A DNA stretch of 24,000 nucleotides from Providencia rettgeri (GCA_900455085.1 UGTZ01000001.1:3804661-3828660), one strand, 5' to 3'; shown: positions 135-20,941, counted from the first letter of the stretch. Notes: generated by a model from the sequence alone, not told the origin. Numbers and translations are program-made.

Positions 135-848
135 TAAGATGACTCCAAAATAAACTTAGTCGTGCAGTGTACCCACCTCACAGGCAACACACAATGCATT
201 TACACTGATAATGCATATTTATCTGAACGTAAATACTTGCAACTGTCGGCATGATGAGTAAGTAGAGATAGCCTGAAACATGATTAATTCTTATATTATG
301 TGACATATCTGTTACTAAAAAAGCGAAACGATTCGCTTTCTCAATCTATTTTAAAATTTTCTGTTCAAAATTAAATTTATTCTAAATAATAAATAGTGAG
401 ACTCCTCGCAAATTAGCATTCAATATGAATTAAACTCTTCAGCTATAATAATAGTATTAATCACTTATTATTGATAAAACCTGAGTAATTCACTTGGTTT
501 TATACACTAAAAGTCTATGTAAATTTAATGATAATCATTTGAAATTCCTTTTTATTCGGTGTTAACAGCCTAGAAAATCCAGTAATGTAAAAACATTTAT
601 AAAAAGAAGATCTATCTCACACTTTATCGCTAAATTTGGCCAAAACACCCCTCTATATCAAATTTATCTTGAGGACTATTCGCTATAATTCACAGCATGA
701 TAAGTCATTATTAGCTATTATATTATTTACTATTAAAAAACAGATATTTCGTAGTTTAGCTTTAAGTTGAACTGAAAATGACGTAGCTAATTATCAAAAG
801 TATTTAAAAGAATTTATCAATTTTACACTTGAACAATGGAGAAGCGCA

Positions 849-2646
849 GTGCAAACCTTCAATGCCGATTTAGCGATTATCGGGGCCGGGGGCGCAGGCT
901 TACGTGCAGCAATTGCTGCCGCTGAAGCAAATCCCAATATCAAGATTGCTCTGGTCTCAAAAGTATACCCAATGCGTAGTCACACTGTGGCCGCAGAGGG
1001 GGGATCAGCAGCAGTTACTCAGGCTCATGACTCCTATGACTATCATTTTAATGATACTGTAGCTGGGTGGGGACTGGCTGTGTGAGCAAGATGTTGTCGA
1101 CTATTTTGTCGAACACTGCCCAACAGAAATGACCCAACTAGAGCTATGGGGCTGCCCGTGGAGCCGTAAACCAGATGGTTCAGTTAACGTTCGCCGTTTT
1201 GGTGGAATGAAAATTGAGCGTACGTGGTTTGCTGCTGATAAAACTGGCTTCCACATGCTCCATACCCTGTTCCAAACTTCATTAAAATATCCACAAATTC
1301 AACGTTTTGACGAACATTTTGTTCTCGATATCATTGTTGATGAAGGCCAAGTCCGTGGTCTTGTCGCGTTAAATATGATGGAAGGAACAAAAGTCCAGAT
1401 CCGTGCTAATGCCATCGTGATGGCAACTGGCGGTGCTGGACGCGTTTATCGCTACAATACCAATGGCGGTATTGTAACCGGTGATGGTATGGGTATCGCA
1501 TTCCGCCATGGCGTGCCGCTGCGTGATATGGAATTTGTTCAATATCACCCAACTGGGTTACCGGGTTCAGGTATCTTAATGACCGAAGGTTGTCGTGGTG
1601 AGGGCGGGATCCTTGTCAATAAAGACGGCTATCGCTATCTGCAAGACTACGGAATGGGGCCTGAAACTCCACTGGGTAAACCTGAAAATAAATATATGGA
1701 ACTGGGTCCACGTGACAAAGTTTCCCAAGCGTTCTGGCACGAATGGCGTGCAGGCCGTACGATCAGCACTCATCGTGGTGATGTCGTCTATCTGGATCTA
1801 CGTCACCTTGGCGCAGAAAAACTGCATGAGCGTTTACCATTTATTTGTGAATTGGCGAAAGCCTACGTAGGTGTTGACCCAGTAACAGACCCAATTCCTG
1901 TTCGCCCAACCGCTCACTACACCATGGGTGGTATCGAAACGGATCAACGCACAGAAACACGCATCAAAGGCCTATTTGCTGTCGGTGAGTGTTCTTCTGT
2001 TGGCTTGCACGGTGCAAACCGTTTAGGTTCTAACTCATTAGCTGAATTAGTTGTATTTGGTCGTCTGGCAGGTGAAGAAGCCGCTCGCCATGCTGCTGAA
2101 GCAACACCAGCCAATGCAAATGCTATCGAAGCCCGTACTCGTGATATCGAAGCTGACCTCAGCAAACTCATGAACCAAAAAGGGAAAGAGAGCTGGTCGA
2201 AGATCCGCGACGAAATGGGTATTTCAATGGAAGAAGGCTGCGGTATCTACCGTACCCCTGAATTAATGCAAAAAACCGTTGATAAAATTGCTGAGCTGAA
2301 AGAACGCTTCAAACACGTCGAAATTACCGACCATAGCAGCGTATTTAATACTGACCTACTGTACACCATTGAATTAGGCTTTGGCCTTGATGTGGCGGAA
2401 TGTATGGCTCACTCTGCAATCAACCGTAAAGAATCACGTGGTGCACACCAACGTCTCGATGAAGGCTGTACTGAGCGTGATGATGTTAATTTCCTTAAAC
2501 ATACTTTGGCATTCTATAACCCAGAGGGCTCCCCTCGTTTAGAATACAGTGACGTGAAAATCACGAAATCTCAGCCAGCTAAACGTGTTTACGGTGCCGA
2601 AGCTGAAGCTCAAGATAAGGCGAAGAAGGAGCAAGCTAATGGATGA
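849..2646 (+). CDS. frdA: fumarate reductase flavoprotein subunit FrdA; frame broken as sequenced
   Basis: GTG start at 849 with GGAGA at 838-842. The product aligns end to end with E. coli FrdA ([22 protein letters not shown] ... [10 protein letters not shown]). The ORF track splits it into 849-1085 and 1129-2646. [10 protein letters not shown] should read [18 protein letters not shown]. One extra nucleotide within gctgggtgggga (1062-1073) causes the shift. Confidence 0.97.
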
Positions 2647-3374
2647 TATGAAACACCTAAAAATGGAGATCATGCGTTACAATCCGGAAACGGATAGTGA
2701 GCCCCATTTGGTGACGTATGATGTCCCTTACGACGAGCAAACTTCTTTGTTAGATGCGTTAGGCTATATCAAAGATAACCTCGCTCCAGACCTGTCTTAC
2801 CGTTGGTCTTGTCGTATGGCGATTTGTGGTTCTTGCGGCATGATGGTGGATAAAGTACCTAAACTGGCGTGTAAAACATTCCTGCGTGAATACCCGCAAG
2901 GTATGAAAGTTGAGCCATTAGGTAACTTCCCAATCGAGCGCGACCTTGTTGTTGATATGACTCACTTTATTGAGCGTTTAGAAGCGATCAAACCGTATAT
3001 TATCGGTAATGACCGTAAACCTTCTGAAGGCCCAAATAAGCAAACGCCTGCACAGATGGCCAAATACCATCAATTTTTCAGGCTGTATCAACTGTGGTCT
3101 GTGCTATGCAGCTTGCCCACAATTTGGACTGAACCCAGAGTTCATCGGCCCAGCCGCGATCACATTGGCAGAGCGCTACAATTTAGATAACCGAGACCAT
3201 GGTGCGAAAGAACGCATGACCTTGTTAAACGGTGACAATGGTGTCTGGAGCTGTACGTTTGTAGGCTACTGTTCTGAAGTCTGTCCTAAGCATGTCGACC
3301 CTGCTGGTGCTATTCAGCAAGGGAAAGTTGCCAGCGCGCAAGACTTTGTTATCGCCATGCTGAAGCCACGATAA
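2639..3374 (+). CDS. frdB: fumarate reductase iron-sulfur subunit FrdB; frame broken as sequenced
   Basis: ATG at 2639 with AGGAG at 2627-2631; it overlaps the frdA stop (ATGGATGA). Cys clusters are present: [24 protein letters not shown] and [12 protein letters not shown]. The ORF track splits it into 2585-3190 and 3009-3374. The T5 run at 3074-3078 should be T4 to read [12 protein letters not shown]. Confidence 0.95.
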
Positions 3375-3388
3375 GGAGAATTGAAGTC

Positions 3389-3783
3389 ATGACTACGAAA
3401 CGTAAACCCTATGTCAGAGAAATGAAGGGCGACTGGTGGCAAAAGCTGGGTTTTTACCGCTTTTACATCATGCGTGAAAGTACCTCCGTCCTTCAGGTCT
3501 GGTTCAGTATTTTAGTCCTGTATGGGGTATTTGCGCTGAAAAGCGGTCCAGAATCATGGGCTGGCTTTGTTGGGTTCTTAAGTAACCCAATCATTCTTAT
3601 CATTAACATTATTACATTGGCTGCGACATTGCTGCATACCACGACGTGGTTCAACCTTGCGCCAAAAGCCGTCAGTATTATTGTGAAAGATAAGAAAATG
3701 TCTGATGAGCCTATCGTTAAAGGCTTCTGGGCTCTCACGATTGTTGTTACGCGGCAATCTTAGCAATCGCATTGTTATTTTAA
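3389..3783 (+). CDS. frdC: fumarate reductase membrane anchor FrdC; 3' end out of frame as sequenced
   Basis: ATG at 3389 after a [20 protein letters not shown]... matches FrdC. The sequenced ORF stops at TAG 3761-3763 (…IVVTRQS*). Adding one G at acg|cgg (about 3749-3752) gives …[14 protein letters not shown] ending at TAA 3781-3783, which matches the FrdC C-terminus. Confidence 0.9.
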
Positions 3784-3798
3784 TCTAAGGAGAATCTG

Positions 3799-4152
3799 AT
3801 GAATCTAACGCCTAAACGTTCCGATGAGCCGATTTTCTGGGGGTTATTTGGTGCAGGTGGTATGTGGAGTGCTGTAATTGGCCCTGCAATCATCATTCTG
3901 TTAGGAATTTTAATTCCTCTCGGTGTGGCACCAGAAATGCTGAGCTATGAGCGCATTATGGCATTTAGCCAAAGCTTTATCGGCCGCGTTTTCTTATTAC
4001 TGATGATTATTTTGCCAGTTTGGTGTGGTATGCACCGTATCCACCATACGCTGCACGACTTTAAAATCCATGTCCCTGCGACAAAATGGGTTTTCTACGG
4101 TGGCTCAGCAATCATTAGTGTAATTGCAATTATTGGTGTATTTACTCTGTAA
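3799..4152 (+). CDS. frdD: fumarate reductase membrane anchor FrdD
   Basis: Intact 117-aa ORF with [28 protein letters not shown]… and …[16 protein letters not shown] match E. coli FrdD. Confidence 0.93.
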
Positions 4153-4183
4153 ATAATGCAATCACCACATTATTTTAATAAAA

Positions 4184-4216
4184 GGTATGACAGCACATTG
4201 TCATACCTTTTCTTTT

Positions 4217-4218
<2 letters not shown>
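4184..4218 (+). terminator. rho-independent terminator after frdD
   Basis: Perfect 9-bp stem ggtatgaca (4184-4192) / tgtcatacc (4199-4207) with a 6-nt loop, followed by ttttctttttt. An A-rich left flank could also make it work for the convergent tetR. Confidence 0.75.
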
Positions 4219-4837
<619 letters not shown>

Positions 4838-4840
4838 CTA

Positions 4841-4893
4841 TTGACACTCTATCACTGATAGGGATACATTCCAAATCTATCAATGATAGAGAA
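4841..4893. promoter_or_regulatory. tet divergent control region: TTGACA -35 hexamer plus two tet operators
   Basis: actctatcactgataggga (4846-4864) and atctatcaatgatagagaa (4875-4893) are both close to the palindromic tetO consensus TCTATCAnTGATAGA. TTGACA at 4841-4846 abuts operator 1, as in the Tn10 tetA promoter (from memory). Confidence 0.85.
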
Positions 4894-4900
4894 ATGAATA

Positions 4901-6097
4901 ATGAATAAATTTGCGATCACTGCATTAACGATCACCGCCCTTGATGCTATGGGGATCGGTTTGATCATGCCTGTTTTACCAGCCTTACTCCGTGAGTATG
5001 TGACGCTAGAAAACTTGGCAAATCATTACGGTATCTTGCTGGCTTTGTACTCCATCATGCAGGTATTTTTTGCCCCAATACTGGGCAGATGGTCTGATAA
5101 ATTCGGTCGCAAGCCTATTTTGTTGATCTCCCTTGCAGGAGCCGTACTGGACTACAGTTTATTGACTTTATCGAGCTCACTTTGGATGCTGTATTTAGGC
5201 CGTTTAATTTCAGGGATCACTGGCGCAACAGGCGCCGTAGCGGCTTCTGTTATTGCCGACAACACTGCCCCCACAAGAACGCACTAAATGGTTTGGGCGA
5301 TTAGGCGCAGCATTTGGCGTGGGGTTAATCGCCGGCCCTGCGATTGGGGGCTTTGCAGGGCAATTTTCCCCACATTTACCTTTTGTTATTGCGGCTATTT
5401 TGAATGCGTGCTCTTTTGTCGTGATCTGGCTTATTTTTAAAAATAAAAATGCCATACAGAATGATCAAAATGAAACTGTAGAGCTGTCAGTTCCCTTCAT
5501 ACAGCTGATAAAACCCGTTATTTTGCTACTTTTTGTCTTTTTTATGGCACAGTTAATTGGTCAGATCCCTGCAACAACCTGGGTGCTATTTACCGAAAAT
5601 CGCTTCCAATGGAATAGTGTGCAAGTTGGTTATCTTTGGCGGGCTTAGGCGTTATGCATGCCCTATTCCAAGCTTTTATTGCTGGAGCCATTGACAAAAA
5701 ATTCAATGAAAAGGTAACAATCATTGTCGGCTTTGTCGCAGACGGAAGCGCATTTATTATTTTGTCATTACTCACCGAAGGTTGGATGATTTACCCTACA
5801 TTAATCTTACTCGCCGGTGGTAGTATTGCATTACCAGCACTACAAGGGTTAATGTCAGCTCAAGTTAATCAAGCTAACCAAGGTAAATTACAAGGGATTT
5901 TAGTCAGTTTAACCAATGCCACAGGGGTTATTGGCCCATTATTATTTAGCTTTATTTTTGGCCTTACACTGGCAAATTGGGACGGCTGGGTGTGGCTAAT
6001 TGGCGCGATAATGTATATTTTCTTGATCGTATTTATTTTATCTTTTTATAGAAGTAGCAGACAGATAGTTAAAATAGTGACACGACCAGCAAGCTAA
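4901..6097 (+). CDS. tetA: tetracycline efflux MFS pump TetA (class J/H-like); frame broken twice as sequenced
   Basis: MNKFAITALTITALDAMGIGLIMPVLPALLREY and GRWSDKFGRKPILL are TetA hallmarks. There are three ORF pieces: 4901-5287, 5253-5648 and 5636-6097. The C5 run 5268-5272 has one base too many (…NTAP/QERTKWFGRLGA). The tt at about 5629-5632 has one too few (…QVG/LSLAGLGVMHALF). The total length of 1197 nt is in frame overall. Confidence 0.9.
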
Positions 6098-6175
6098 ATT
6101 TTAGCATATGAATATTAAATGCTATGATATCCCTATCAGATTTGCTTTTGGTACATGACGTTAAGAGATATTTCA

Positions 6176-6757
6176 ATGACAATACAGCCTAAAAACCAAG
6201 AACAAAACCTGCGGAAGAAAGGCTTGATGACTTAATGAACGCAGCAGAAAACCTTTTTCTTTCCAAAGGTTTTGTCAATACTACGGTTAGCGAAATTGTC
6301 TTATCTGCGGATGTTGCAAAAGGGACCTTTTATCACTACTTCCAGTCAAAAAATGACATTATGGAAGCCTTACGCTCTCGCTATATGGATTGGTATCTAA
6401 GCCACATTCAATCTGCTTTAGATTCGCAAAAAAGTGCATCTGCCAAACTCAAATCATGGTGTGAAAATAGCATTAAATACTATGTTTGAAAAACAAAATA
6501 TTCACGACATGCTATTTCATGACGAATACCACGGACGCAGTAATGATCATGAAACTCGTGCAGTTGAACAGATTAAAGCTATTTTAGCTTTTGGTGAGAA
6601 AAACAAAGCATGGCCAGAATTGCCACATGAATTGATGGCGACAATGATTTATCACTCCATGCATGCTGCTGTTGATAATTTAGCCAATAGTACTGAGTAT
6701 GATCAATATACTTTGGGTGAGATCCTATACCAGCGATTCAGCCAATTGATCAACTAA
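6176..6757 (+). CDS. TetR/AcrR-family transcriptional regulator; frame broken twice as sequenced
   Basis: The N-terminal HTH TTVSEIVLSADVAKGTFYHYFQSKNDI is typical of the TetR family. ATG at 6176 (MTIQPK). The A5 run 6191-6195 lacks one base (…KKPRTKPAEERLDDLMNAAENLF). The T3 run 6485-6487 has one too many (…SIKYYV/EKQNIHDMLF). The span is 582 nt, in frame overall. Confidence 0.75.
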
Positions 6758-6862
6758 CACATTTAATACTGGGTTTTATTTTTTCATCCGAAAAATTTTT
6801 GTATACCCAATAGGGTAGCAATCTTATTTTCTATTACTATAGCTCTATAATTTATGATGATT

Positions 6863-6881
6863 TCCCCCCCTAACGGGGGGA
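6863..6881. other. G/C-only hairpin between convergent genes
   Basis: tCCCCCCC-taac-GGGGGGa: a C7 run 6864-6870, loop 6871-6874 and a G6 run 6875-6880. It lies 18 nt beyond the restored MFS-1 stop. Neither strand has a U-tract, so a terminator role is uncertain. Confidence 0.5.
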
Positions 6882-6898
6882 TTAAATCATGGTTAACA

Positions 6899-8086
6899 CT
6901 AAGCAGGATTTGGTTTTGGCAAACAAGCAGATACAAAGTAAAAAAGCCCACAAACCGCAATAAATAGCCCAACATAACCTAAGTTAAAGTGACTTAAATA
7001 ACTGACAATTAGAGGGGTTGATCCCACCGATAGATGCAGCTGCACTATTATAACCAACACCTAATATTGTTGCCTGTCCGTCAGATTTATCCATCAGTAC
7101 CGCTGATAAATTACACAATATCATCGCTGAGTATGCAGACATAACGACTTGAGCAAAAAAAACTAGAAGCAAATTACCTATTTGTAATAAAAAATAAAGT
7201 GGCGCTGAAAACAATACCATCCCAATAACGCCTATATCAAAAACAAATTTAGCCGAACCATACTTATCTGTTAACCAACCACATATCATCATAAAAACTA
7301 GCAATAAACCGGATGAAAATATTTCATAATAATTTTTTATCTCATCTATCTTTAATTGTTGAATAATTAGTGAGGTTGACAAACTTTGAGAGTAAAAAGT
7401 GACAGTTCCAGGAATAGTAAATAAGAACACCAAAATTACACGATACCAACTAAATATCGTTTTTTTATCTAATTCATTTTTATAATTAGGTAATTTAGCT
7501 CTAAACCAAAAACTAATTAAAATATTAATTAAACCAATTAATAATGGGATCCTCCACCCAATTGACTGCATAGTATCTTCAGATAACGAATTCTTTTAGT
7601 ATAAAAACGATAGCTAATGATGCAATGACCCCACACAAAGAACTACCAACAATAATTGACGAAACTCTAGATCGAATATTTCCATCTAAATCCTTAAATA
7701 AATATGTAATTAGAGAGGGAAATTCACCTGCGAAGCTAAAAGAAAGAGCCAATTGTAAAATTAATATCACTAATGGCGTATAGTTCCCTAATAATTCAAT
7801 GGGTAACAGTGCCATCATTAATGTTGCCGTACCGGTTATCAAGCTTGTTAATACTAGGGCTGACTTTTTTCCTACCGTATCAGCATAGCGGCCGATAACA
7901 TATCCGCCTAAAGGGCGGATTAAAAAACGTAATGCAAAGATACCCCATACCATTTCTGTCGCTTGAGAATAACCTAATTTAGTTAATTCAATACTTAAAA
8001 TAAGTAGATATAGCTGCAAAAACTGCAATATCATAGTATTCCAAAGCATTACCAGCTACAGCACCCAACCTAAATTTCCATTTCAT
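6899..8086 (-). pseudogene. MHS-family (ProP/KgtP/ShiA-like) MFS permease, copy 1; three frame breaks as sequenced
   Basis: ATG at 8086 (MKWKFRLGAVAGNALEYYDIAVFAAIS). The G-N-x-L-E-x-Y-D motif and RPLGGYVIGRYADTVGKK loop resemble the KgtP/ProP subfamily (from memory). Breaks: the A4 run 7997-8000; about 7581-7587 (…ILKEFV/SEDTMQSIGWRIPLL); and the G4 run 7014-7017. Fixing the last extends the tail to …PLIVSYLSHFNLGYVGLFIAVCGLFYFVSACLPKPNPA*, with the stop at 6899-6901. It is a paralogue of 9863-11058. Confidence 0.75.
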
Positions 8087-8137
8087 TTTTATCCCTTTTC
8101 TATTAATGACTTTCCTTGTAGAGAAATATTCTGTCCT

Positions 8138-8921
8138 TTAGGGATAACTCACCAGAGACTCCAAACAAGCAAGAGTAATACCATTTTCTTTTAAAGCCTT
8201 AAATAACCCGCTAGGTGAAGAGTAAGAGCAACCTAGTTTTTCCTTAATACGTTGAATACGCTTATTTTCTGTCGCTTCTGAACAATCTTGCATATAGCTA
8301 ATTTCCTTTACCCGACAATGTGACAATAATAATGCGGATAGTTATTATTTCTTTACGGGTAAAACGAATATTACCAAAGCGCATATAAGGGTGAATATCT
8401 AAAGGTTCAAGCTCTTGTTCACTAAGTTTGTTAATTATATTCACTGGGAATTTAATTTCTTCACGCAATGGTTAAATAGCATAATTATCTTTGTCTTTTT
8501 TCCATGATTCATATGCGAAATCTATAATCGTTGGCCTACATTTATAAAGTGATATCATATCATTTAGTGAAATTTTCTTTCTAGAATTAATGGACGTAAT
8601 TTCATATACATTTCCATACTTAGCACAAAAATCAATTTTCAATTCCCTTTTCTTGGTTTTTGCTAATGTATTTACAAAGCTTTCCGAGTAATTACTCCAG
8701 TATTGAACCCCTGGAGATAACCGTTCACTTAAACGTAAATCTAAATCAGCATTCCAATAAATAAGCAGCCATTCGTAATTGTTTGACATAATACTCACTT
8801 GCTTATTGCTAAGATCAACTCTAGTTATGGATAAATCTATATCATTCCAATTGAAATACTTTGAAAAAAGGTTTGTTAAATTAGAACAGGATTTTTCTAA
8901 TAAATTATTTTCTATATCCAT
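8138..8921 (-). pseudogene. LuxR-type solo regulator, paralogue A; in-frame TAA plus one frameshift
   Basis: ATG at 8921. It is colinear with the intact paralogue 9083-9847. An in-frame stop at 8472-8474 (…DNYAI*PLREE) replaces the TTA (Leu) seen in the paralogue. One extra base in 8323-8333 separates …FTRKEIITIR from LLLSHCRVKEISYMQDCSEATENKRIQRIKEKLGC…, which is the LuxR/FixJ-type HTH. Confidence 0.72.
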
Positions 8922-9082
8922 ACACTATCCTTAATTTGATTATTTTTTAAATTATTAGATTAAAATTAATACTTTTAAAAAACAGTATACTTATTAGCAT
9001 CTGGAAGTTAATGAATTAAAGGCTCCACATCCCTACTCTCAATTAGGTTAATAATTCAATACGTTAAAATAGATATTTTAAA

Positions 9083-9847
9083 TTAAGGGTAACTTACCAG
9101 AGACTCCAGACAAGCAAGGGTAATGCCATTTTCTTTTAATGCCTGAAATAAACCGCTAGGTGAAGTATAAGAGCAACCTAATTTTTCCTTAATACGTTGA
9201 ATACGTTTATTTTCAGTCGCTTCCGAACAACCTTGGATATAACTAATTTCCTTTACCCGGCAATGTGATAATAGTAATCGGATAGTCATCATTTCTTTAC
9301 GGGTAAAACGAATATTACCAAAACGCATGTAGTGGTGAGCATCTAAAATATCTCGGTTATTATCTTCAATTTTTTGAGATAAGCTTATGTCAGCCCTAAG
9401 TGGTAAAATAATATTTTCATTATCTTTCCAGGCATGTTGGGAGTAATCAGAAATAACTGCTCTTAATTTATAGAGTTCTAATAATTCATTACTTGTAAAT
9501 TTTTTTCTTGAATTTATTGAGGTAATTTCATATATACCACCATATTGGGTACAAAAATCCACCTTCATTTCTTTCTTATCTGTTTTAGATAATGTTTTTT
9601 GGAATGCGGCAGAGTAATTATTCCAATATTGAATACCGGGGGTTAATCGTTCCTTTACTTTTTTATCTAGGTCATCATCCCAAAACATTAAAACCCACTC
9701 ATAGTGATTTGAAATAACTTTTACCACGTTATTTGTTACATCCACTCTACTGTAAGTCACATCCATATCATTCCAATCGAAATATTTTAAAAACTTATCA
9801 CCAAAACCAGAACAAGACAGTTCTAAGTGTTTATTTTCAATATTCAT
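9083..9847 (-). CDS. LuxR-type solo regulator, paralogue B (intact): unrecognised ~185-aa N-terminal domain plus C-terminal LuxR/FixJ HTH
   Basis: Intact 254-aa ORF. The SD AAGGGGGA lies 15 nt after the stop of the upstream permease. The C-terminus FTRKEMMTIRLLLSHCRVKEISYIQGCSEATENKRIQRIKEKLGC is a LuxR/GerE-type HTH. The N-terminal domain carries YF-WND-D (22-29), YEW (49-51), PG-QYW-NYS (70-79) and YEITSINSRKK (106-116). I cannot recognise AHL-receptor or receiver-domain motifs in it. Confidence 0.8.
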   Translation of the reverse strand: MNIENKHLELSCSGFGDKFLKYFDWNDMDVTYSRVDVTNNVVKVISNHYEWVLMFWDDDLDKKVKERLTPGIQYWNNYSAAFQKTLSKTDKKEMKVDFCTQYGGIYEITSINSRKKFTSNELLELYKLRAVISDYSQHAWKDNENIILPLRADISLSQKIEDNNRDILDAHHYMRFGNIRFTRKEMMTIRLLLSHCRVKEISYIQGCSEATENKRIQRIKEKLGCSYTSPSGLFQALKENGITLACLESLVSYP

Positions 9848-9862
9848 ACATCCCCCTTAAAT

Positions 9863-11058
9863 TTAAGCAGTTAATAACCTTTGTTTTTTATTCAATAAAA
9901 ATGACGCAAATAGCGTTAACGAGCTCAATGAAACAAAAACACCCACCAAGGAAACATCAATGAGGACTAAGTAATTGATAATTAATGGCGTTAACCCACC
10001 TATAATCGTCGATGCAAGGTTATACCCCATACTTAACGTCGTAACTTGCCCATTGGCTGGTTTTGCCATCGCATAATTCCAATTGCATAACACCATCGCT
10101 GAAATAATAATAATTGACGATTGGGAGATAAGTACTAATGATAAAACCTTAGTAGACATTAGGTAATAAATAGGAATTGATAATATCGCAGCGAGCTTTA
10201 CCCCTAAGTTAAACACCCGCTCAGAGTAATTGTATTTATCGGTTAGCCAACCAACTATTGCCATTAAAACCAATAATAACGTTGATGATATCATTGAATA
10301 TATACTTTTAAATTCTTCGAGTTCTAACTCCTTAAGTAAAAATGAAGATGAAAAATTTAAGGTATAAAAAATAACCGAACCAGGAATAACAACCAGTAAG
10401 ATATTAAATGCCTTAAGCCAATCTATTTTCTGGCGCCCATCATATTCAATTGGTTGGTCTGTTAAGCGATAGCGAAACCAGAAACAGATCAGTATATTAC
10501 CTAAACCTAATAGCAGTGGTATTCTCCATCCCACTCTTTGCATGGTTTCAGGGGGTAATATATTTTCAAGAATTAACACAATTCCTAACGAGCCAATAAC
10601 GCCAACAACCGCACTTCCAGTTAACAACGCTGAAATTCGACCTCGTTCTTGGGGTTTAGAATCTTTATATAAATAGGTAGACAGTGATGGGCTTTCACCC
10701 GCAAAACTAAAAGATAGCAACATTTGAAGAAATAGGATGGCTAAAGGTGTATATATCCCTAATAATTCAATAGGCAGAAATGCCATACACAATGTGGCAC
10801 TACCGGTAAGAATGCTGACCAAAATCATTGCCGGTTTTTTACCGACTTTATCCGCATAACGGCCAATTACATACCCCCCTAATGGCCGAATAAGAAAACG
10901 TAAAGCAAAAATCCCCCACACCAGCTCCGTTGCTTGCTGATAACCTAGGGCGGGTTAATTCTGCACTTAAATATGATGAAATTGCAGCAAAAATTGCAAC
11001 ATCATAAAATTCTAAGGTATGCCCTGCGACAGCACCCAAAACGTAATTTCCATTTCAT
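9863..11058 (-). CDS. MHS-family (ProP/KgtP/ShiA-like) MFS permease, copy 2; two frame breaks near the 5' end as sequenced
   Basis: ATG at 11058 (MKWKLR). The A4 run 11038-11041 has one base too many (…R/LGAVAGHTLEFYDVAIFAAISSYLSAELTR). The GGG run 10948-10950 has one too many (…ELTR/LGYQQATELVWGIFALRFLIRPLGGYVIGRYADKVGKKP). The remaining 352 aa are open. 1196 nt minus 2 gives 398 codons. Confidence 0.8.
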
Positions 11059-11101
11059 AAAATGATCCCATGTCCCTATAGAAAACCAATAGTTAAATTA
11101 A

Positions 11102-11863
11102 TTAATAGGCATTAATTTTTCTAAAACTTGTTAATGTAATGCCGTGACCTTCCATTACCGAAAAGCATTCCTTTTGAGAGACCATTTCACAGTTTAATTT
11201 TTTCTTGATGTTTTTAACTCTTATATATTCCACCTCTTCCGAACAGCCTTGAATACGGCTAATTTCCTTGATATTTCGGTGGGAAAGCAACAAGGCGGAT
11301 GGTTAATGCTTCTTTGTTTGAAAATGATAACTGACCAAAACGTATAAAATTAGGGGTTTCCTTACTTCTACAAATAATAGGGTACAGGTTCATCTAATTC
11401 AATTTTTTGGCGTAACGGTAATGCCACCGTTTTATTTTCAGACCATTTTTCATATGCATAATCAGAAACTATTGAACGCCATTGATATACATGAAAGTAA
11501 GTACTCATATGAGACTTTATGGTTTCCATTGAGTGAAAATATCTCAAATAAATTATTGTACCTATTACAAATATCAATTTTTTTATTTCCTTTATCGAGT
11601 TTGGTTAATATTTTCTGGTATGCATCTGAATAATTAACTCCAATATTGCACCCCAGAGAATAACCGTTCTTTTAATGATAAATCCATATCATGATGCCAA
11701 TAAATTAACTGCCACTCATAATTACTAGATAATGTGTATATCTTTCCTCATCAACATTAATAATCGTATAATGGATATCAATATCATTCCAATTAAAATA
11801 ATTGCAAAGATCTAACTTTACTCTAGTGCTTATTTTTTCCATCTTATTGTTTTCTATATCCAT
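11102..11863 (-). pseudogene. LuxR-type solo regulator, paralogue C; at least five frame breaks
   Basis: ATG at 11863 (MDIENNKMEKISTRVKLDLCNYFNWNDIDIHY…). Homologous segments sit in different frames: SNYEWQLIYWHHDMDLSLKERLFSGVQYWS; NYSDAYQKILTKLDKGNKKIDICNRYNNLFEIFSLNG; YQWRSIVSDYAYEKWSENKTVALPLRQKIELD; PNFIRFGQLSFSNKEALTIR; LLLSHRNIKEISRIQGCSEEVEYIRVKNIKKKLNC. The breaks are near 11705-11730, 11633-11637, 11488-11497, 11372-11374 and 11284-11295. Confidence 0.62.
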
Positions 11864-12069
11864 AAAAATCACCTTATAGTTATTTAAATAAAAATAAAGA
11901 TAATAAAAGCGTTTAACCCATATCTTTAGCACATAAAAATAAATATTCAAAGACCGAAATTTAAAGGGATTTAAAATTAAGAATTATTTTTTTATCTTGA
12001 TATCTAAATTTAGTTCCAGCTAACTTAAATAATTTCAATTATATTTATATATTCACTATTGGAGATCGT

Positions 12070-12279
12070 ATGAAACAAGATTGGCACTCGGCTGATATTA
12101 TTGCAGCGATAAAGAAAAAAGGTTCTTCTCTTTCACAAATATCACGTTCAGCAGGGTTAAACTCATCAACATTAAATAACGCCTTGTCAAGACGTTGGCC
12201 TAAAGGAGAGCGTATTATTGCCGAGTTTTTGGGTGTTGCACCATCTGAAATTTGGCCATCGCGTTATAACGAAAAATAA
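12070..12279 (+). CDS. nlp: Ner/Nlp(SfsB)-family small HTH DNA-binding protein
   Basis: Intact 69-aa ORF with GGAGA RBS. DWHSADIIAAIKKKGSSLSQISRSAGLNSSTLNNALSRRWPKGERIIAEFLGVAPSEIWPSRY parallels E. coli Nlp (DWHPADIIAGLRKKGTSMAA…LSSSTLANALSRPWPKGEMIIA…IWPSRY, from memory). Confidence 0.75.
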   Translation: MKQDWHSADIIAAIKKKGSSLSQISRSAGLNSSTLNNALSRRWPKGERIIAEFLGVAPSEIWPSRYNEK

Positions 12280-12323
12280 CATAAGAATAGTTTTCTTTAT
12301 GCCAATAAAATATCAAGAAGATA

Positions 12324-12352
12324 AAGCGGGTAACTTTCTCTGTCGCCCGCTT
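12324..12352. terminator. hairpin between convergent nlp and gdx
   Basis: aagcggg (12324-12330) pairs with cccgctt (12346-12352). The left flank is A-rich and ttattattcattttt lies to the right. The loop is about 15 nt, so the prediction is only moderate. Confidence 0.5.
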
Positions 12353-12390
12353 ATTATTCATTTTTAATTAAATAATAATTAATTTGAAAA

Positions 12391-12705
12391 TTAACTTGAT
12401 ACTTTTAAACCAATTAACCCGGTAATAATCAAAGCAAGGCTTAACAAGCGGAACATATTTGCTGACTCACCAAGGAAAATAATCCCAACAATTGCTGTGC
12501 CCACAGCCCCAATCCCCGTCCAAATGGCATAAGCCGTGCCGACCGGTAAATCACGCATGGCGTAGGCTAACAACCCCATACTGGTAATAATAGCGACAAT
12601 AGTAATAATACTCGGTGTTAAACGGGTAAAACCATGAGTATATTTTAAACCTACAGCCCATACCACTTCGCATAAACCTGCAAAAAAAAGAACGATCCAA
12701 GCCAT
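12391..12705 (-). CDS. gdx: SMR-family guanidinium exporter Gdx (SugE)
   Basis: Intact 104-aa [32 protein letters not shown]… contains the conserved membrane Glu (CEV) and has the typical four-TM SMR length. GGGAG SD at 12715-12719. Confidence 0.9.
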
Positions 12706-12730
12706 GATTGCTTGCTCCCGTTAATTACTC

Positions 12731-12776
12731 GGGGTCGTCCCATATTTAAATGACGTTGATTCAGGCCGTCCTGAAT
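12731..12776 (-). promoter_or_regulatory. guanidine-II (mini-ykkC) riboswitch candidate in the gdx leader
   Basis: The minus-strand RNA is AUUCAGG-ACGG-CCUGAAU (12776-12759; 7-bp stem, ACGG loop), then a 17-nt linker, then GGG-ACGA-CCC(C) (12741-12731). The GGGAG SD follows 11 nt later and the AUG is at 12705. Two hairpins with ACGR tetraloops upstream of an SMR exporter define the mini-ykkC motif. Confidence 0.65.
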
Positions 12777-12972
12777 ACGTATGATGTATAAATACATTAT
12801 AAATATTCACAGACCCAGACTCAAGCAACGAAAAATAACAAATAAGCGCAAATCAACCATAAAATTTAACCTTTTTATACCGTTTTTTATTATTAAGCAT
12901 CATAACCATCGCACTCAAAATTATACACATGTAAGTAGATGTCTAATCTGGCAAGTTCATCGAGAAAATAGC

Positions 12973-13882
12973 ATGAGTCTCAGAGACATCTTACTCGCCC
13001 TTTGTGTAGTCGTAATTTGGGGGGGTTAACTTCGTTATCATTAACTCGGCGTTACCGCACTTCCGCCATTATTATTAGGCGCATTACGTTTCATGTTTGT
13101 AGCCTTTCCTGCTATTTTTATTTTTAAGCGCCCCAAAATTCCGTTCAAATTATTGCTTCTCTATGGGCTCACCATCAGCTTTGGTCAATTTGCCTTCTTA
13201 TTTTGCGCGATTAGAGTGGGGATGCCAGCGGGGATTACCTCTGTTATCTTGCAATCCCAAGCATTCTTTACTCTATTACTCGGCGCAATGATTTTAAAAG
13301 AATCATTACAGCCGACTCACTTTCTTGGTATGTTTATCGCAATTGCAGGGCTGACCGTGTTAGCCAATGGCGCCACTGCCGGCGGGCTAGATGATATTCC
13401 ATTACTCGGGTTAGCATTTACTTTAATTGGCTGGTTTATCATGGGCTTGTGGTAACATTACCAATAGGATCATAATGAAACAGGAAGGCGCTGAGAAATG
13501 CAGTGCCCTATCATTGGTCAGTTGGAGCGCGCTGATCCCAATCATTCCCTTTTTGATTAGTTCATGGGTTTTAGAAGGTGAAGAAGCCATTGTTGAAGGG
13601 CTATCAGGGCTTTAATTGGTCAGTCTTTGGTGTCATTATCTATTTAGCTTATTTATCAACATTTGTCGGCTATGGGCTTTGGGGAGTCCTGCTCGCCGTT
13701 ATGAAGCTTGGCGTGTTGCTCCTTTTTCATTGTTGGTTCCAGTCTTTGGTTTAAGCAGCAGTGCTTTATTCCTTGGAGAGCATATAAATGGCGTACAACT
13801 TGCTGGCCTCGTTTTGATCATGTTTGGCCTAATTACCACGCTTTTTGGTAAAAAAATAATGCAACAATTAAGACGAGCCTAG
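12973..13882 (+). pseudogene. eamA: EamA (YdeD)-like DMT-family cysteine/O-acetylserine exporter; five frame breaks as sequenced
   Basis: ATG at 12973 (MSLRDILLALCVVVIWG). The restored protein parallels E. coli EamA throughout (…NFVIIKLGVTALPPLLLGALRFMFVAFPAIF…FSWACGN-type LSWACGNI…YGLWGVLLARYEAWRVAPFSLLVPVFGL…). The breaks are at the G7 run 13019-13025 (+1), aa 13043-13044 (-1), gg 13429-13430 (+1), the T3 run 13611-13613 (+1) and cc 13696-13697 (-1). Confidence 0.8.
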
Positions 13883-13897
13883 TTAACCAATTAATAG

Positions 13898-13932
13898 TCG
13901 GGAGTTTTTTAGCTTCCGATTATTTTCTTTTC
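13898..13932 (+). terminator. putative rho-independent terminator after eamA
   Basis: tcgggag (13898-13904) pairs with cttccga (13913-13919), including one G-U pair. The loop is 8 nt and is followed by ttattttcttttc. Confidence 0.5.
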
Positions 13933-14209
13933 TTTAACCATTTTCGTATCAACAAAAACAACGCAACAGCTATTATTACTAAAAAACATCAAAAATCCAG
14001 ATAAAAAACCAATTCATTAGATAATCGCTAGCTCAAAACCAGATAAAATCCAATAAATAATCCTAAATTAGTGATACTGGCAACAATTATTAAATTTATC
14101 TCAAATTTCAATTAGGTGTCTCGTTTTAGCTACTTTTTCTTTAACTTAACTATGGCTATATCTTCCTCAGTTTCACTTAAATAAATAACAAATATCATTC
14201 ATTGAACAG

Positions 14210-16314
14210 ATGGGGATGACTATGGGTAAACAATTTATTTGGATTGTGCTCGCTCTGCTCGGTGCTTTTTCACTTGGCTACATCGCTTTATATCGTGGCG
14301 AACAAATCAATGCCTTGTGGATCGTTGTCGCAGCCGTATGTATTTATCTGATCGCATACCGCTATTACGGGCTTTTTATTGCTAAAAAAGTACTCCAAGT
14401 CGATGCAACTCGAATGACGCCTGCAATTCGTCATAATGATGGCTTAGATTACGTACCAACAGATAAAAAAGTATTATTTGGTCACCATTTTGCCGCTATC
14501 GCAGGCGCCGGCCCACTGGTTGGCCCTGTTCTTGCCGCGCAAATGGGCTATTTACCCGGTATGCTGTGGCTACTCGCTGGGGTTGTGCTAGCTGGTGCCG
14601 TACAAGATTTTATGGTGCTGTTTGTCTCAACACGTCGAGATGGCCGCTCACTGGGTGAATTAGTCAAAGAAGAAATGGGCAATACCGCAGGGGTGCTGGC
14701 TTTAATCGCTTGTTTCATGATTATGGTAATCATCTTAGCCGTACTTGCCATGATTGTCGTAAAAGCCCTCACTCATAGCCCATGGGGAACTTATACGGTT
14801 GCCTTTACTATTCCTTTAGCGATTTTTATGGGTATTTATACCCGTTATATCCGCCCAGGACGCATTGGTGAAGTTTCTATTATTGGGCTCGTTTTTCTTG
14901 TATTTGCAATTATCTCAGGGGGTTGGGTTGCTGAAAGCGAAACTTGGGCACCTTACTTTGACTATACAGGTGTTCAACTCACTTGGATGTTAGTCGGTTA
15001 TGGCTTTGTTGCTGCCGTTTTGCCAGTTTGGCTATTACTCGCTCCCGCGACTATCTATCAACCTTTTTAAAAATCGGGACTATCATTGGATTGGCAATTG
15101 GTATTTTAATTCTCAATCCAAACTTACAGATGCCATCGTTAACGAAATATATTGATGGTACAGGCCCAGTTTGGGCAGGTGATTTGTTTCCATTCTTATT
15201 TATTACGATTGCTTGTGGCGCCGTTTCTGGCTTCCATGCACTGATTTCATCAGGCACCACACCAAAAATGTTGGCTAATGAAAACCAAGCTTGCTTTATT
15301 GGCTATGGTGGCATGTTAATGGAATCTTTCGTAGCAATTATGGCATTGGTTGCCGCTTGTGTGATTGACCCGGGTGTTTATTTTGCCATGAATAGTCCCA
15401 TGGCGATGTTAGCTCCCGCAGGTACGCAAGATGTGGTCGCCTCTGCGGCCCAAGTTGTCAGTAGTTGGGGCTTCCAAATCACTCCTGAGCAGCTCAACAG
15501 CATTGCGAATGACGTGGGTGAAACCAGTATTATTTCACGGGCAGGCGGTGCGCCAACACTGGCAGTTGGGATGGCGTATATTCTTCACGGTGCGCTTGGC
15601 GGCTTGATGAATGTGGCATTCTGGTACCACTTTGCCATATTATTTGAAGCATTATTTATTTTAACCGCGGTGGATGCAGGAACCCGAGCAGCACGTTTTA
15701 TGCTACAAGATTTACTGGGAGTGGTGTCTCCATCTTTGAAACGTACGGATTCGCTACCCGCCAACTTGATAGCAACTGCACTGTGTGTGCTAGCTTGGGG
15801 TTATTTCCTCCACCAAGGCGTTGTCGACCCACTTGGTGGTATTAACACCTTGTGGCCATTGTCTGGTATCGCGAACCAAATGTTAGCAGGTATGGCATTA
15901 ATGCTGTGTGCTGTGGTACTGTTCAAAATGAAGCGCCAAAGATATGCATGGGTCGCTTTAGTACCAACAGCATGGCTGTTAATCTGCACGATGACTGCAG
16001 GCTGGGAAAAAACCTTCAGTGAAGATGCCCGCGTCGGTTTCTTAGCTGTAGCAAATAAATTCCAAGCGATGATTGATAGCGGCAATATTCCTGTTCAATA
16101 TACAGAGTCTCAATTAACTCAGTTAATTTTCAATAACCGCTTAGATGCAGGGTTAACTATTTTCTTTATGATTGTCGTGGTATTACTGGCTCTATTCTCC
16201 ATCCGCACCGCGTTGAAGGCATTAAAATCTGACCAACCAACTGCGAATGAAGTACCATATGAACCCATGCCAGCCAACTATGAAGAAATCGTGGCAAATA
16301 CGCGCCATCATTGA
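14210..16314 (+). CDS. cstA: carbon starvation protein A (CstA-family peptide/pyruvate transporter); one frame break as sequenced
   Basis: It aligns along its whole length with E. coli CstA (…GAFSLGYIALYRGEQINALWIVVA…, …GFHALISSGTTPKMLANE…). Candidate starts are at 14210, 14216 and 14222, and I cannot choose between them. The ORF track splits it into 14210-15070 and 14983-16314. The CCC run 15044-15046 lacks one C (…WLLLAP/RDYLSTFLKIGT). Confidence 0.93.
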
Positions 16315-16368
16315 TTTTCGCGGAAAAGCTTGTCACTGTTTAGGACATATACTCTTTCTCCAAAATAA

Positions 16369-16468
16369 TTCACGTTGGAGCAAGGCGGCCAAGAAGATAA
16401 TCCCTAGGAGCATACTCCAGTATGTGACTAGGGTTAGCGAATGAAGCCAACGCAGCAACAGCGTGAAG
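16369..16468. repeat. ERIC/IRU-like imperfect palindromic repeat, full copy
   Basis: The core taATCCCtAGGAGCaTACtccAGTAtGTGACTaGGGTtAGCG matches the ERIC central inverted repeat (AATCCCCAGGAGCTTACATAAGTAAGTGACTGGGGTGAGCG, i.e. the ERIC1R/ERIC2 primer region, from memory). The outer arms ttcacgttggagcaaggcgg… and …gccaacgcagcaacagcgtgaa are also complementary. Confidence 0.7.
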
Positions 16469-16481
16469 TATTAAGGATAAA

Positions 16482-16546
16482 CTAGGAGCATACATAACAG
16501 TATGTGACAGGGTTAACAAGTGAAGTCAACAACGCTGTAGCACGAA
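16482..16546. repeat. ERIC-like repeat, second (partial) copy
   Basis: ctaggagcatacataacagtatgtgacagggttaacaagtgaagtcaacaacgctgtagcacgaa repeats the right half of the copy at 16369-16468, with substitutions. It ends 5 nt before the ybdD Shine-Dalgarno sequence. Confidence 0.55.
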
Positions 16547-16563
16547 ATATGAGGGAGAAAAAA

Positions 16564-16761
16564 ATGTTTGGAGAACTGGGAAAAGCAGCCCGCTACCTAG
16601 GCCAAGCGGCAAAAATGATGGTTGGCGTTCCCGATTACGACAACTATGTCGCTCATATGCAAAGAACACACCCTGACCAAACGCCTATGACCTATGAAGA
16701 ATTTTTCAAAGAGCGTCAAGACGCACGCTACGGTGGCAAAGGTGGGTTTAAGTGCTGTTAA
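16564..16761 (+). CDS. ybdD: YbdD/YjiX-family small protein (CstA-associated)
   Basis: ATG at 16564 after GAGGGAG (16551-16557). [65 protein letters not shown] matches E. coli YbdD/YjiX, including the terminal CC. The longer track ORF starting at 16504 reads through the ERIC copy and is not credible. Confidence 0.85.
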
Positions 16762-16783
16762 TCACTTAAAATAGACAAAAAAA

Positions 16784-16812
16784 GCCGTGGTCGAGTACCA
16801 CGGCTTTTTATT
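16784..16812. terminator. bidirectional rho-independent terminator between ybdD and efp
   Basis: gccgtggt (16784-16791) pairs with accacggc (16797-16804) around a 5-nt loop. It is flanked by aaaaaaa on the left and tttttattttt on the right. Confidence 0.8.
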
Positions 16813-16839
16813 TTTAACGATTCAGTATAGGATCAACCG

Positions 16840-17406
16840 TTATTTTACACGTGAAACATATTCACCTGAACGAGTATCAACACGGATAACTTCACCGATC
16901 TGAACAAACAGAGGAACCTTAACCACTGCGCCAGTGCTCAGTGTTGCAGGTTTACCACCTGTACCTGCGGTATCCCCTTTCAGGCCTGGGTCAGTATCGG
17001 TAATTTCTAACTCAACAAAGTTAGGTGGAGTTACCGCGATAGGACGGCCGTCCCACAGTGTTAAAATACATTCTGCTTGGTCAACTAACCATTTCGCGTT
17101 ATCGCCAACGGTTTTTTCGTCCGCTGCTAACTGTTCAAAAGTTTCGTTGTTCATGAAATGCCAGAACTCACCGTCGTTGTATAGGTAAGTTAAGTTCATA
17201 TCCATGACATCTGCACCTTCAACAGAGTCAGTAGACTTAAATGTTTTTTCCAACAGTTTGTTAGAAATCAGTTTACGGATACGCACACGTGCGAATGCTT
17301 GACCTTTACCCGGTTTGACGAATTCACTTTCTAAAACGACACAAGGCTCGCCATCTAACATGATTTTAAGACCTGAGCGGAATTCATTGGTACTATAAGT
17401 AGCCAT
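16840..17406 (-). CDS. efp: translation elongation factor P
   Basis: Intact 188-aa ORF with [31 protein letters not shown]…[12 protein letters not shown] contains the conserved Lys34 modification loop (KPGKGQA). Confidence 0.97.
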
Positions 17407-17449
17407 GGTGATCCTCTAATTTATAAACTAAAAATGGCATAGCCAAAAA

Positions 17450-18478: not shown

Positions 18479-18487
18479 AAAGCAAAA

Positions 18488-18509
18488 CGCCCAAACAATT
18501 ATTTGGGCG
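18488..18509 (-). terminator. hairpin terminator downstream of yjeI (shared with convergent epmB)
   Basis: cgcccaaa (18488-18495) pairs with tttgggcg (18502-18509) around a 6-nt loop. On the minus strand it is followed by ttttgcttt. The plus-strand side lacks a U-tract. Confidence 0.6.
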
Positions 18510-18522
18510 CTATGAATTCATT

Positions 18523-19225: not shown

Positions 19226-19285
19226 CTTATGGTGGGTAGCCCTAACTTAGTTAGTAACTACTTGAGCTTGATGTCGCCAACTGGC

Positions 19286-20941
<1,656 letters not shown>

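Follow-up and report, generated by a model that had tools for sequence, protein, structure and literature searches.

We analysed a stretch of 24,000 nucleotides (nt) from Providencia rettgeri (GCA_900455085.1 UGTZ01000001.1:3804661-3828660), hereafter the window, on which all positions are counted. It carries an array of five minus-strand genes, in the order regC, MFS-2, regB, regA and MFS-1, that encode three LuxR-type regulators and two permeases resembling the metabolite:H+ symporter (MHS) group of the major facilitator superfamily (MFS). A small Ner-like gene, divergent from the rest of the array, precedes regC. We think it somewhat probable that the locus consists of tandem, diversified copies of a compact mobile cassette for the sensing and uptake of a small molecule. 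The features are as follows, lengths in amino acids (aa) being those of the protein products.

12070-12279, plus strand: Ner-like gene, 69 aa, intact, with an HTH_35 domain
11864-12069, divergent: 206 nt of intergenic DNA separating the Ner-like gene from regC, holding the block ATGTGCTAAAGAT
11863-11098, minus strand: regC (luxR-C in an earlier note on this DNA), LuxR-type regulator, 253 aa in conspecifics, broken in the window
11058-9863, minus strand: MFS-2, MHS-like permease, 397 aa in conspecifics, two +1 insertions near the 5' end
9847-9083, minus strand: regB (luxR-B), LuxR-type regulator, 254 aa, an intact open reading frame (ORF)
9082-8922: regB-regA gap of 161 nt, with a sigma-70-like site inside (consensus scan)
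8921-8138, minus strand: regA (luxR-A), LuxR-type regulator, 260 aa in conspecifics, with a nonsense codon and an insertion
8086-6899, minus strand: MFS-1, MHS-like permease, 394 aa in conspecifics, three +1 insertions
6864-6880: G+C hairpin CCCCCC-GTTA-GGGGGG, seen on inspection of the sequence, lying where the ends of MFS-1 and a TetR-like gene converge

The order, strand and boundaries given for the five genes in the earlier note, which was made from the sequence alone, were borne out by tblastn and by intact conspecific loci. It put the intergenic gaps at 43, 15, 161 and 51 nt; the last three stand, and the first is 39 nt in the intact conspecific locus L025 (gaps of 39, 15, 161 and 51 nt). 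Pfam searches of the called genes agree with it that no luxI, kinase or enzyme gene lies inside the block, and the array does occupy the frdD-sugE (gdx) slot in which E. coli carries ampC-blc. Its block of three regulators and two permeases was incomplete, as the conserved third partner, the Ner-like gene at 12070-12279, had been missed. Biological results below are based on intact conspecific proteins.

A regulator gene followed on the same strand by a permease gene was found in 32 of the 33 loci examined (19/20 from genomes, 7/7 from metagenomes and 6/6 further loci). The genome scan took one genome per species and gave 21 loci (20 distinct ones), all belonging to Providencia, Morganella or Yersinia; the one exception among these 20, L019, has a frameshifted regulator. 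The scan of metagenome contigs used an alignment of the distant subclade and gave seven marine loci (L029-L035), in every one of which a regulator 24-29% identical to regB adjoins a permease of 30-36% identity, so that the pairing still holds where regulators are about 25% and permeases about 30-36% identical. Further pairs occur in Y. enterocolitica, M. morganii and V. campbellii and on the IncFII plasmid pYPSE1-3 of Y. pseudotuberculosis. In the reverse direction, starting from permeases, a regulator was found upstream in both cases (2/2), Vibrio spartinae and Candidatus Fukatsuia symbiotica, the most distant that were checked, and searches from that side gave the permease subfamily a distribution as narrow as the regulator's. 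The fixed regulator-permease module suspected in the earlier note is thus a co-inherited one.

In most loci the two genes are separated by about 10 to just over 100 nt, the gap being about 370-400 nt in V. spartinae, V. campbellii and the Y. pseudotuberculosis plasmid. In V. spartinae, the sole long-gap case with gene calls, it is occupied by a glyoxalase-family gene (L036, CP046268.1; a 133-aa glyoxalase/VOC gene at 3598-3999, between regulator and permease). The gap of about 400 nt in V. campbellii (L040) may hold the same VOC gene, which is a possible clue to substrate chemistry. With this exception, no enzyme or synthase gene accompanies the cassette in the contexts examined. LuxI-type synthases (PF00765) were lacking among the called genes within 10 kb on either side in six conspecific loci, as well as in the Yersinia, Morganella, Vibrio and Fukatsuia contexts, in keeping with the description of the regulators as LuxR-type solos with no synthase nearby.

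The regB protein consists of an N-terminal domain (approximately residues 1-150), a linker some 25 aa long and, at the C terminus, a helix-turn-helix (HTH) of LuxR/GerE type. Searches of the regulators with Pfam and NCBIfam gave no match above threshold, and the regB HTH matched only at sub-threshold level (GerE, PF00196, E=0.013, below the gathering score). A database search with regB returned 80 relatives, all from Providencia or Yersinia and none with a Pfam domain, and a profile search of 1.84 billion representative proteins gave 113 matches, reaching Vibrio and marine (Tara) metagenomes. Among 66 remote family members, 31 match GerE (best E=1.5e-13), and hhalign aligned regB residues 178-229 to residues 177-228 of SdiA, its HTH, with 89% probability. 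A profile search against PDB sequences yielded noise only.

The fold of the N-terminal domain was recovered by structure prediction. AlphaFold2, supplied with a 50-sequence alignment, modelled full-length regB with a predicted local distance difference test score (pLDDT) of 85.7, and residues 1-150 alone with a pLDDT of 92.9 and a predicted template modelling score (pTM) of 0.87; the elements of the domain run alpha-beta-beta-alpha-alpha-beta-alpha-beta-beta-alpha-alpha. For both models, the top 50 Foldseek matches in the PDB are exclusively LuxR-type receptors or their ligand-binding domains (LBDs), including SdiA, YenR, QscR, RhlR, CepR2, LasR, VqsR, TraR and CviR. The matches to the full-length model are two-domain LuxR receptors, and those to the domain alone reach E=1.5e-4, with TMq 0.5-0.61, a root-mean-square deviation (rmsd) of 4-6 Å and 6-17% identity. 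On these models the sensor is predicted to be a very divergent autoinducer-binding-type (LuxR LBD) domain, an alpha-beta-alpha sandwich. The earlier note had called it unrecognised, which no longer applies to the fold, though still to its sequence-level family. The note would also have given up its proposal had the domain matched a well-characterised ligand-binding family; such a match exists at the level of fold only, and neither a ligand nor a sequence family follows from it.

Receiver (FixJ/NarL-type) and PAS4 identities were rejected, there being no Pfam match, the order of elements being wrong for a receiver and such folds being lacking among the structural matches. The receiver domain (Response_reg, PF00072) was matched neither by the window proteins nor in the families listed for the 66 members, no receiver structure was among the Foldseek matches of either model, and the order of strands and helices in the N-terminal domain does not fit a (beta-alpha)5 receiver. 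PAS_4 (PF08448) was not matched by regA, regB or regC, nor was it among the families most often matched by the 66 members, and the Foldseek top 50 from the PDB for the N-terminal model contained no PAS proteins. With no PAS_4 match, the analogy that had been drawn with the PAS4-type sensors of Photorhabdus fails.

The W/Y-rich motifs earlier seen to be conserved between the paralogues are real and are hallmarks of the family. Invariant residues include F23, Y49, D61, E66, R67, W75, Y78, K95 and D97, and conservation across the whole family extends to Y49, W51, D59-L60-D61, E66, R67, G71, Q73, W75, Y78, K95, D97, E107 and N112, which are grouped in two helices (49-57 and 60-67), in strand 71-75 and in strands 94-113. 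To judge from published structures of TraR and SdiA, these residues would occupy the elements that line the ligand pocket in receptors for acyl-homoserine lactones (AHLs). The AHL-pocket signature WYDPWG corresponds to W57, Y61, D70, P71, W85 and G113 of TraR (PMC4235431). Following the order of secondary-structure elements, W51, Y/F55, D61 and W75 can be registered by hand with TraR W57, Y61, D70 and W85, which is to be taken as a lead only; equivalents of P71 and G113 are not evident in the regulators by the same ordering, which is not a residue-level alignment.

The permeases match the Pfam families MFS_1 and Sugar_tr, the former above its gathering score, and their best-scoring model over nearly the full length is TIGR00883 (MHS), at 139-140 bits against a curated cut-off of 443 (E=1.2e-40 for MFS-2 and 2.3e-40 for MFS-1). 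Best matches are to H+ symporters, namely the MHS subfamily, TcuC, ShiA, ProP and the MFS model PRK10406. MFS motif A is present, and the core of antiporter motif C (G-x3-G-P-x2-G), or even any Gly-Pro pair, is absent from both MFS-1 and MFS-2. We accordingly describe them as putatively MHS-like, with TIGR00883 below its curated cut-off; the earlier assignment to the MHS family is upheld as a likeness (TIGR00883 E=1e-40) that stops short of the cut-off. Like ProP, KgtP, ShiA and TcuC, they have MHS-type models as best-scoring over near full length and carry motif A; unlike them, they are shorter (394-403 aa), stay at 140 bits where the curated cut-off is 443, and form a subfamily of their own.

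Clustering of all flanking ORFs identified the Ner-like gene as a further component. Its 69-aa product matches HTH_35 (PF13693) with E=1.6e-33 and 114.9 bits against a cut-off of 25, and the NCBIfam SfsB model with 92.9 bits against a cut-off of 150, over residues 4-68. Since the HTH_35 cut-off is passed and the SfsB equivalog cut-off is not reached, the sequence places it in the Ner/Nlp (SfsB) family, not as an SfsB orthologue. The HTH_35 match and the SfsB match over residues 4-68 are what it shares with Ner of phage Mu and Nlp (SfsB) of E. coli, from which it differs in being shorter, in scoring below the equivalog cut-off and in its fixed divergent position beside a LuxR-type regulator. 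The gene stands divergently upstream of the first regulator in 17 of the 20 Providencia, Morganella and Yersinia species loci, and also in the plasmid, Y. enterocolitica and M. morganii loci (L039, L041 and L042); the Vibrio, Fukatsuia and marine loci lack it.

Within the P. rettgeri group the cassette is amplified to three regulators and two permeases, and the copies have diverged unevenly. Between regA and regB, the sensor domains are 53% identical (dS 1.35, dN/dS 0.26) and the HTH regions 92% (dS 0.47, dN/dS 0.08). At the DNA level the 3' parts that encode the HTH (8138-8403 and 9083-9347) are 89% identical, for 92% protein identity, and the 5' two-thirds are saturated at synonymous sites (dS 1.35). 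The lower dS of the HTH suggests gene conversion, or a recent duplication followed by divergence of the sensor, and for the two genes as a whole the pattern suggests a mosaic origin or gene conversion; regA and regB probably share their DNA sites. In regC both domains differ, the HTH being 48-50% identical to those of regA and regB. The sensor domains are under purifying selection (dN/dS 0.25-0.38). The two permeases share 77% identity in the first 130 residues and 44% in the remainder.

That paralogue divergence lies mainly in the sensor domain, as the earlier note had it, agrees with the comparison of regA and regB. Its statement that the module was duplicated as a unit fits regC-MFS-2 and regA-MFS-1 but not regB, which is an extra regulator: P. 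huashanensis (L001), the nearest other species, is without regA, and there regB directly precedes MFS-1. In Yersinia thracica (L015, 7998-13060) the entire unit of Ner-like gene, regulator and permease is tandemly duplicated; the intergenic regions of its two units are near-identical and contain the direct repeat ATCTCAGTGG ATCTCAGTGG ATCTCAGG. Tandem regulators also occur in uncultured marine bacteria (a Tara scaffold with P0116 and P0128; L031, 7210-8604), and arrays are therefore not peculiar to Providencia.

The flanks of the cassette differ from genus to genus. It lies between frdD and sugE in Providencia, next to argH and a LysR-type gene in Morganella, and, in Y. enterocolitica, with a sugar-alcohol operon on one side and a large DEAD/HA2-family helicase gene on the other, and the 91-kb IncFII plasmid pYPSE1-3 of Y. 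pseudotuberculosis (L039, NZ_AP028971.1) carries the full three-gene cassette at 3056-5838. The array itself is a G+C-poor island (6500-12500), with 29-37% G+C against 41-48% in the flanks, a composition consistent with horizontal acquisition and one that makes the island a likely H-NS target. From the differing slots and the G+C-poor island we conclude that the cassette is horizontally mobile, and an IncFII plasmid is a plausible vehicle for its spread.

A number of neighbouring genes were recorded alongside. The plasmid cassette adjoins genes for HEPN, phospholipase D-family and restriction endonuclease proteins. In the aphid symbiont Fukatsuia symbiotica (L037, CP021659.1) the pair is flanked by a Tc-type (TcA-like) toxin gene and by TcdA/TcdB-like glucosyltransferase and peptidase C80 toxin genes, and in V. 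spartinae it adjoins hcp/vgrG genes of a type VI secretion system. In the window as in the conspecifics, one flank of the array holds frdABCD, a TetR gene, an MFS gene and a second TetR gene, and the other holds the 69-aa HTH_35 gene, sugE, EamA, cstA, efp, epmB, a DUF4156 gene and groEL. The genes between frdD and the array (span 4224-6757) are a TetR gene on the minus strand and, on the plus strand, a tetA-like MFS gene (about 4901-6097) and the second TetR gene (6235-6757). This TetR/tetA-like MFS/TetR block is also inserted relative to E. coli, so that the frdD-sugE slot is filled with several transporter and regulator modules, and it is broken by the same artefactual indels as the array.

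Those indels concern most of the array. The earlier note implied five open genes of about 250 or 395 aa, having translated across frameshifts without saying so; by ORF listing regB is the sole intact ORF among the five array genes in the window, and regA, regC, MFS-1 and MFS-2 carry 1-nt indels, with one nonsense codon in regA in addition. We located the broken genes by tblastn with regB and the longest MFS ORF as queries. Relative to L025, regC has insertions at 11126, 11295, 11382, 11490 and 11637 and a deletion at 11745, and was recovered as fragments in frames -3, -1, -2 and -3; MFS-2 has insertions at 11037 and 10950, with 9863-10921 as its longest ORF and a span (11058-9863) of 1196 nt, which is no multiple of three. 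A TTA->TAA nonsense change at 8475-8473 and a +1 insertion at 8334 disrupt regA (fragments in frames -2 and -3), and insertions at 8000, 7597 and 7019 disrupt MFS-1 (frames -1, -2 and -3).

Over 19.9 kb (1-19851) the window is 99.78% identical to the conspecific L025, from which it differs by 35 one-base indels (25 insertions and 10 deletions, most altering the length of short runs) and 9 substitutions. The indels also break frdA (1067), frdB (3078), frdC (3751), cstA (15046), the EamA gene (several, 13025-13695), the tetA-like MFS gene (5272, 5629) and a TetR gene (6487), and one artefactual insertion, at 6870, falls inside the hairpin at 6864-6880. At least 101 collection blocks of P. rettgeri-group genomes (e.g., CP029736.1, CP172121.1 and CP082351.1) encode a protein identical to regB, and in most genomes with this protein all five genes are intact; among the loci compared, regC is intact in L022-L027, and regA in L022-L025 and L027. 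Because indels far outnumber substitutions, hit essential and accessory genes alike and are set against near-identical healthy conspecifics, sequence comparison indicates that the damage to the four genes is almost certainly sequencing or assembly error and not biology. The TTA->TAA change in regA, as the single lesion of substitution type, could be real or an error.

Were the array made up of true pseudogenes instead, four of its five genes would be decaying and regB alone would be functional. We give this very little credence. The frameshifts and the nonsense substitution are present in the window as given, and regA is N-terminally disrupted in one complete conspecific genome (L026, CP082351.1), but the 25 insertions mostly lengthen short runs, and the breakage of frdA, frdB, frdC and cstA as well is implausible so near to genomes with intact copies; on the 35:9 ratio and the frdABC and cstA hits we rejected both genuine gene decay and a mutator lineage as the origin of the frameshifts. 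The quality of the window sequence is poor, and any pseudogene- or frameshift-type finding drawn from it is suspect and should be treated as artefact.

In L026, regA (10924-11706) is disrupted near its 5' end and called as 216 aa, and the Ner-like gene (7484-7784) is interrupted by about 90 nt, which may mean that parts of the array are decaying naturally in certain strains. Elsewhere in the family, frameshifts affect regulators and sometimes permeases in L013, L016, L017/L021, L018, L019 and L020, the members concerned being from P. alcalifaciens DSM 30120 and BIGb0506, M. morganii H1r, M. psychrotolerans and P. burhodogranariea. These represent either frequent inactivation or further assembly errors in AT-rich, homopolymer-rich genes.

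With gaps of only 39, 15 and 51 nt, co-transcription is likely for regC-MFS-2-regB and for regA-MFS-1; regB starts 15 nt past the MFS-2 stop, with a AAGGGGGA ribosome-binding site. A sigma-70-like site, TTAACT-16-TATACT, on the minus strand at 9011-8984 (consensus scan), makes the 161-nt regB-regA gap a probable location for a second promoter, on weak evidence, as such sites are not enriched over shuffles. The ATGTGCTAAAGAT block lies on the minus strand at 11934-11922, about 68 nt upstream of the regC ATG. In 10 of 14 non-redundant loci (shuffles, 1.6 ± 1.2) the pattern ATGnTAA/TGnTAAA precedes the start of the first regulator by 42-68 nt, an enrichment that is only suggestive, given that the pattern was picked after seeing the data; it may represent an extended -10 element or an operator. 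The hairpin at 6864-6880 may mark the end of a transcription unit, and the terminator scan did not flag it, as it lacks a T-run. A search for inverted repeats gave no convincing lux-box-like palindrome; TAAATTTA-type palindromes are present in several intergenic regions, as is to be expected where DNA is so rich in A+T. Rfam families and tRNAs were lacking throughout the window, on which ground we rejected a riboswitch or any other RNA element in the gaps.

The searches and comparisons above bear directly on the fold and the type of HTH, and they show how strict the linkage is, that selection is purifying and that the cassette is mobile; what follows joins these results into a model. In the mobile-cassette reading, the unit would comprise a LuxR-type factor with a diverged autoinducer-fold N-terminal domain and a downstream MHS-like permease, probably co-transcribed, to which the Enterobacterales version would add the divergently transcribed Ner/Nlp-like DNA-binding protein. 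The permease would take in a polar metabolite unable to diffuse through the membrane; the imported metabolite would bind the pocket of the regulator, and the liganded regulator would switch on the operon it belongs to, so that uptake is reinforced by positive feedback, and probably unlinked genes as further targets. The Ner-like protein may determine how active the divergent promoter is in its basal state. In the P. rettgeri array, regA and regB would present different sensors on a common DNA-binding domain, and regC would differ from them in both. The proposal in the earlier note that each unit imports and senses a small molecule is retained here as a conjecture of the same kind.

Several points weigh against this scheme. 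Ligand binding, the direction of transport, autoregulation and the role of the Ner-like protein are all parts of it that we infer. Autoind_bind (PF03472) was matched by none of the window proteins and by 0 of the 66 remote members at E<=1, and hhalign of the N-terminal domains against the SdiA alignment stayed below 1% probability in both forced local and forced global mode, leaving the domain with no apparent sequence-level link to any ligand-binding family; TM-scores of 0.5-0.6 with an rmsd of 4-6 Å, for their part, indicate a remote match between a predicted model and known folds. At 140 bits against 443, the importer assignment of the permeases is not secure. Consensus promoter and terminator scans gave counts not above shuffled background, and no catabolic or target gene accompanies the cassette. 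The VOC/glyoxalase gene in Vibrio could point to detoxification rather than signalling, and the disrupted members in several species representatives may mean that the cassette is dispensable.

The detoxification alternative takes the unit for a toxin- or drug-responsive efflux cassette, in which the regulator senses a harmful compound and induces an MFS exporter, with logic like that of TetR/TetA but through an activator. The VOC (glyoxalase/bleomycin-resistance) gene between regulator and permease in V. spartinae would suit it, as would the MHS score below the curated cut-off and the setting of the Providencia array among efflux-type genes (the TetR-MFS-TetR block, sugE/gdx and EamA). But those neighbours are not kept with the cassette in other genera, all the best permease matches are metabolite-importing H+ symporters (TIGR00883, TcuC, ShiA, ProP), and the motif C core was not found, nor a Gly-Pro pair in either permease. 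We consider efflux unlikely, if still the rival to be taken most seriously. Regulators that act independently of any ligand are a quite unlikely alternative. Here the N-terminal domain would be a dimerisation or stability module, and the regulator would counter silencing of the permease gene on an acquired AT-rich island; the low G+C content of the island, the want of a recognisable ligand-binding sequence family and the frequent disruption of members in other genomes are all compatible with this. It leaves without explanation why aromatic and charged residues should be invariant in pocket-forming elements across members 20-30% identical, and why the N-terminal domain, though under purifying selection, should diverge faster than the HTH, which is the pattern of changing ligand specificity.

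Every structural neighbour of the regulators is an AHL-type receptor, and this, together with the hand registration on the TraR pocket (a lead only, pairing W51, Y/F55, D61 and W75 with W57, Y61, D70 and W85), would fit AHL eavesdropping receptors, in which the regulators stand in for SdiA and bind exogenous AHLs. The chances of this are slim, in our estimate. The regulators show no sequence similarity to Autoind_bind, and residues equivalent to P71 or G113 are not obvious in them. For AHLs, which cross membranes unaided, one would not expect a dedicated permease to be obligatory, and the several divergent paralogues per genome and the charged D61, R67, K95, D97 and E107 suggest ligands that are polar and varied.

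LuxR solos that have an autoinducer-binding domain and respond to non-AHL ligands include PluR and PauR of Photorhabdus and the OryR/PipR group of plant-associated bacteria. The regulators described here would resemble them in having a LuxR-type LBD fold with a LuxR/GerE HTH, no linked LuxI and a ligand presumed not to be an AHL. By analogy, the proteins may work as these solos do, with PipR as the nearest functional analogue, its adjacent transporter being part of the system and its response depending on that transporter (PMC4981722). They differ in that the family has no PF03472 match, that the partner is a single MHS-like MFS permease instead of an ABC system and pip, and that a Ner-like third gene is present; neither a pip gene nor an ABC-type transporter of the OryR/PipR kind was seen in any context examined, so the analogy is functional only. 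Published censuses define LuxR solos by PF03472, and one "subgroup 2" of such solos, mostly from aquatic bacteria, has a neighbouring MFS_1 gene, with no gene order, permease subfamily or mechanism given (PMC10134790). The recurrence of a solo beside an MFS gene is common to both, whereas subgroup 2 was collected by PF03472, which the present family does not match; censuses based on that domain would miss it for the same reason.

The PAS4-LuxR solos of Photorhabdus are similar in forming tandem arrays of paralogues of about 250 aa with divergent sensors, in insect- or animal-associated Enterobacterales. The window proteins have no PAS_4 match and their array is interleaved with permeases. As published, the Photorhabdus arrays carry a PAS_4 annotation and are not described as permease-interleaved, the word "transporter" occurring 0 times in the relevant paper (PMC4235431). 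As to canonical AHL receptors, SdiA, YenR, QscR, RhlR, LasR and TraR provide the closest structures for both domains, and the HTH aligns to that of SdiA, but identity is 6-17%, the LBD has about 145 aa as against some 165-170, and there is no profile-level similarity between the LBDs. Our literature search found no paper on the regulator family or on the three-gene cassette.

A wider reading, which we put forward tentatively and regard as possible, is that these proteins represent a hitherto unrecognised class of LuxR-type chemoreceptors, whose perception of a signal is tied obligately to an MHS-type importer of their own and, in enterics, also to a co-regulator of the Ner-like kind. The cassette would then be a horizontally transferable channel for polar metabolites of host or microbiota, with arrays as a diversifying repertoire, spread over Morganellaceae, Yersiniaceae, Vibrionaceae and uncultured marine gammaproteobacteria, and would have escaped every census of LuxR solos.

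For research on chemical communication among bacteria, LuxR solos pose a major open problem, as the ligands of most are unknown. The present family widens the class beyond the reach of domain-based surveys. Its linked permease offers an experimental handle, which should define the chemical class of the ligand and allow ligand discovery through uptake, and this makes for a tractable route to a new class of ligands, even if the concept will not surprise specialists. Providencia, Morganella and Yersinia, the hosts of the cassette, are opportunists of the gut and urinary tract and associates of insects, and the signals perceived could be host or microbiota metabolites relevant to colonisation.

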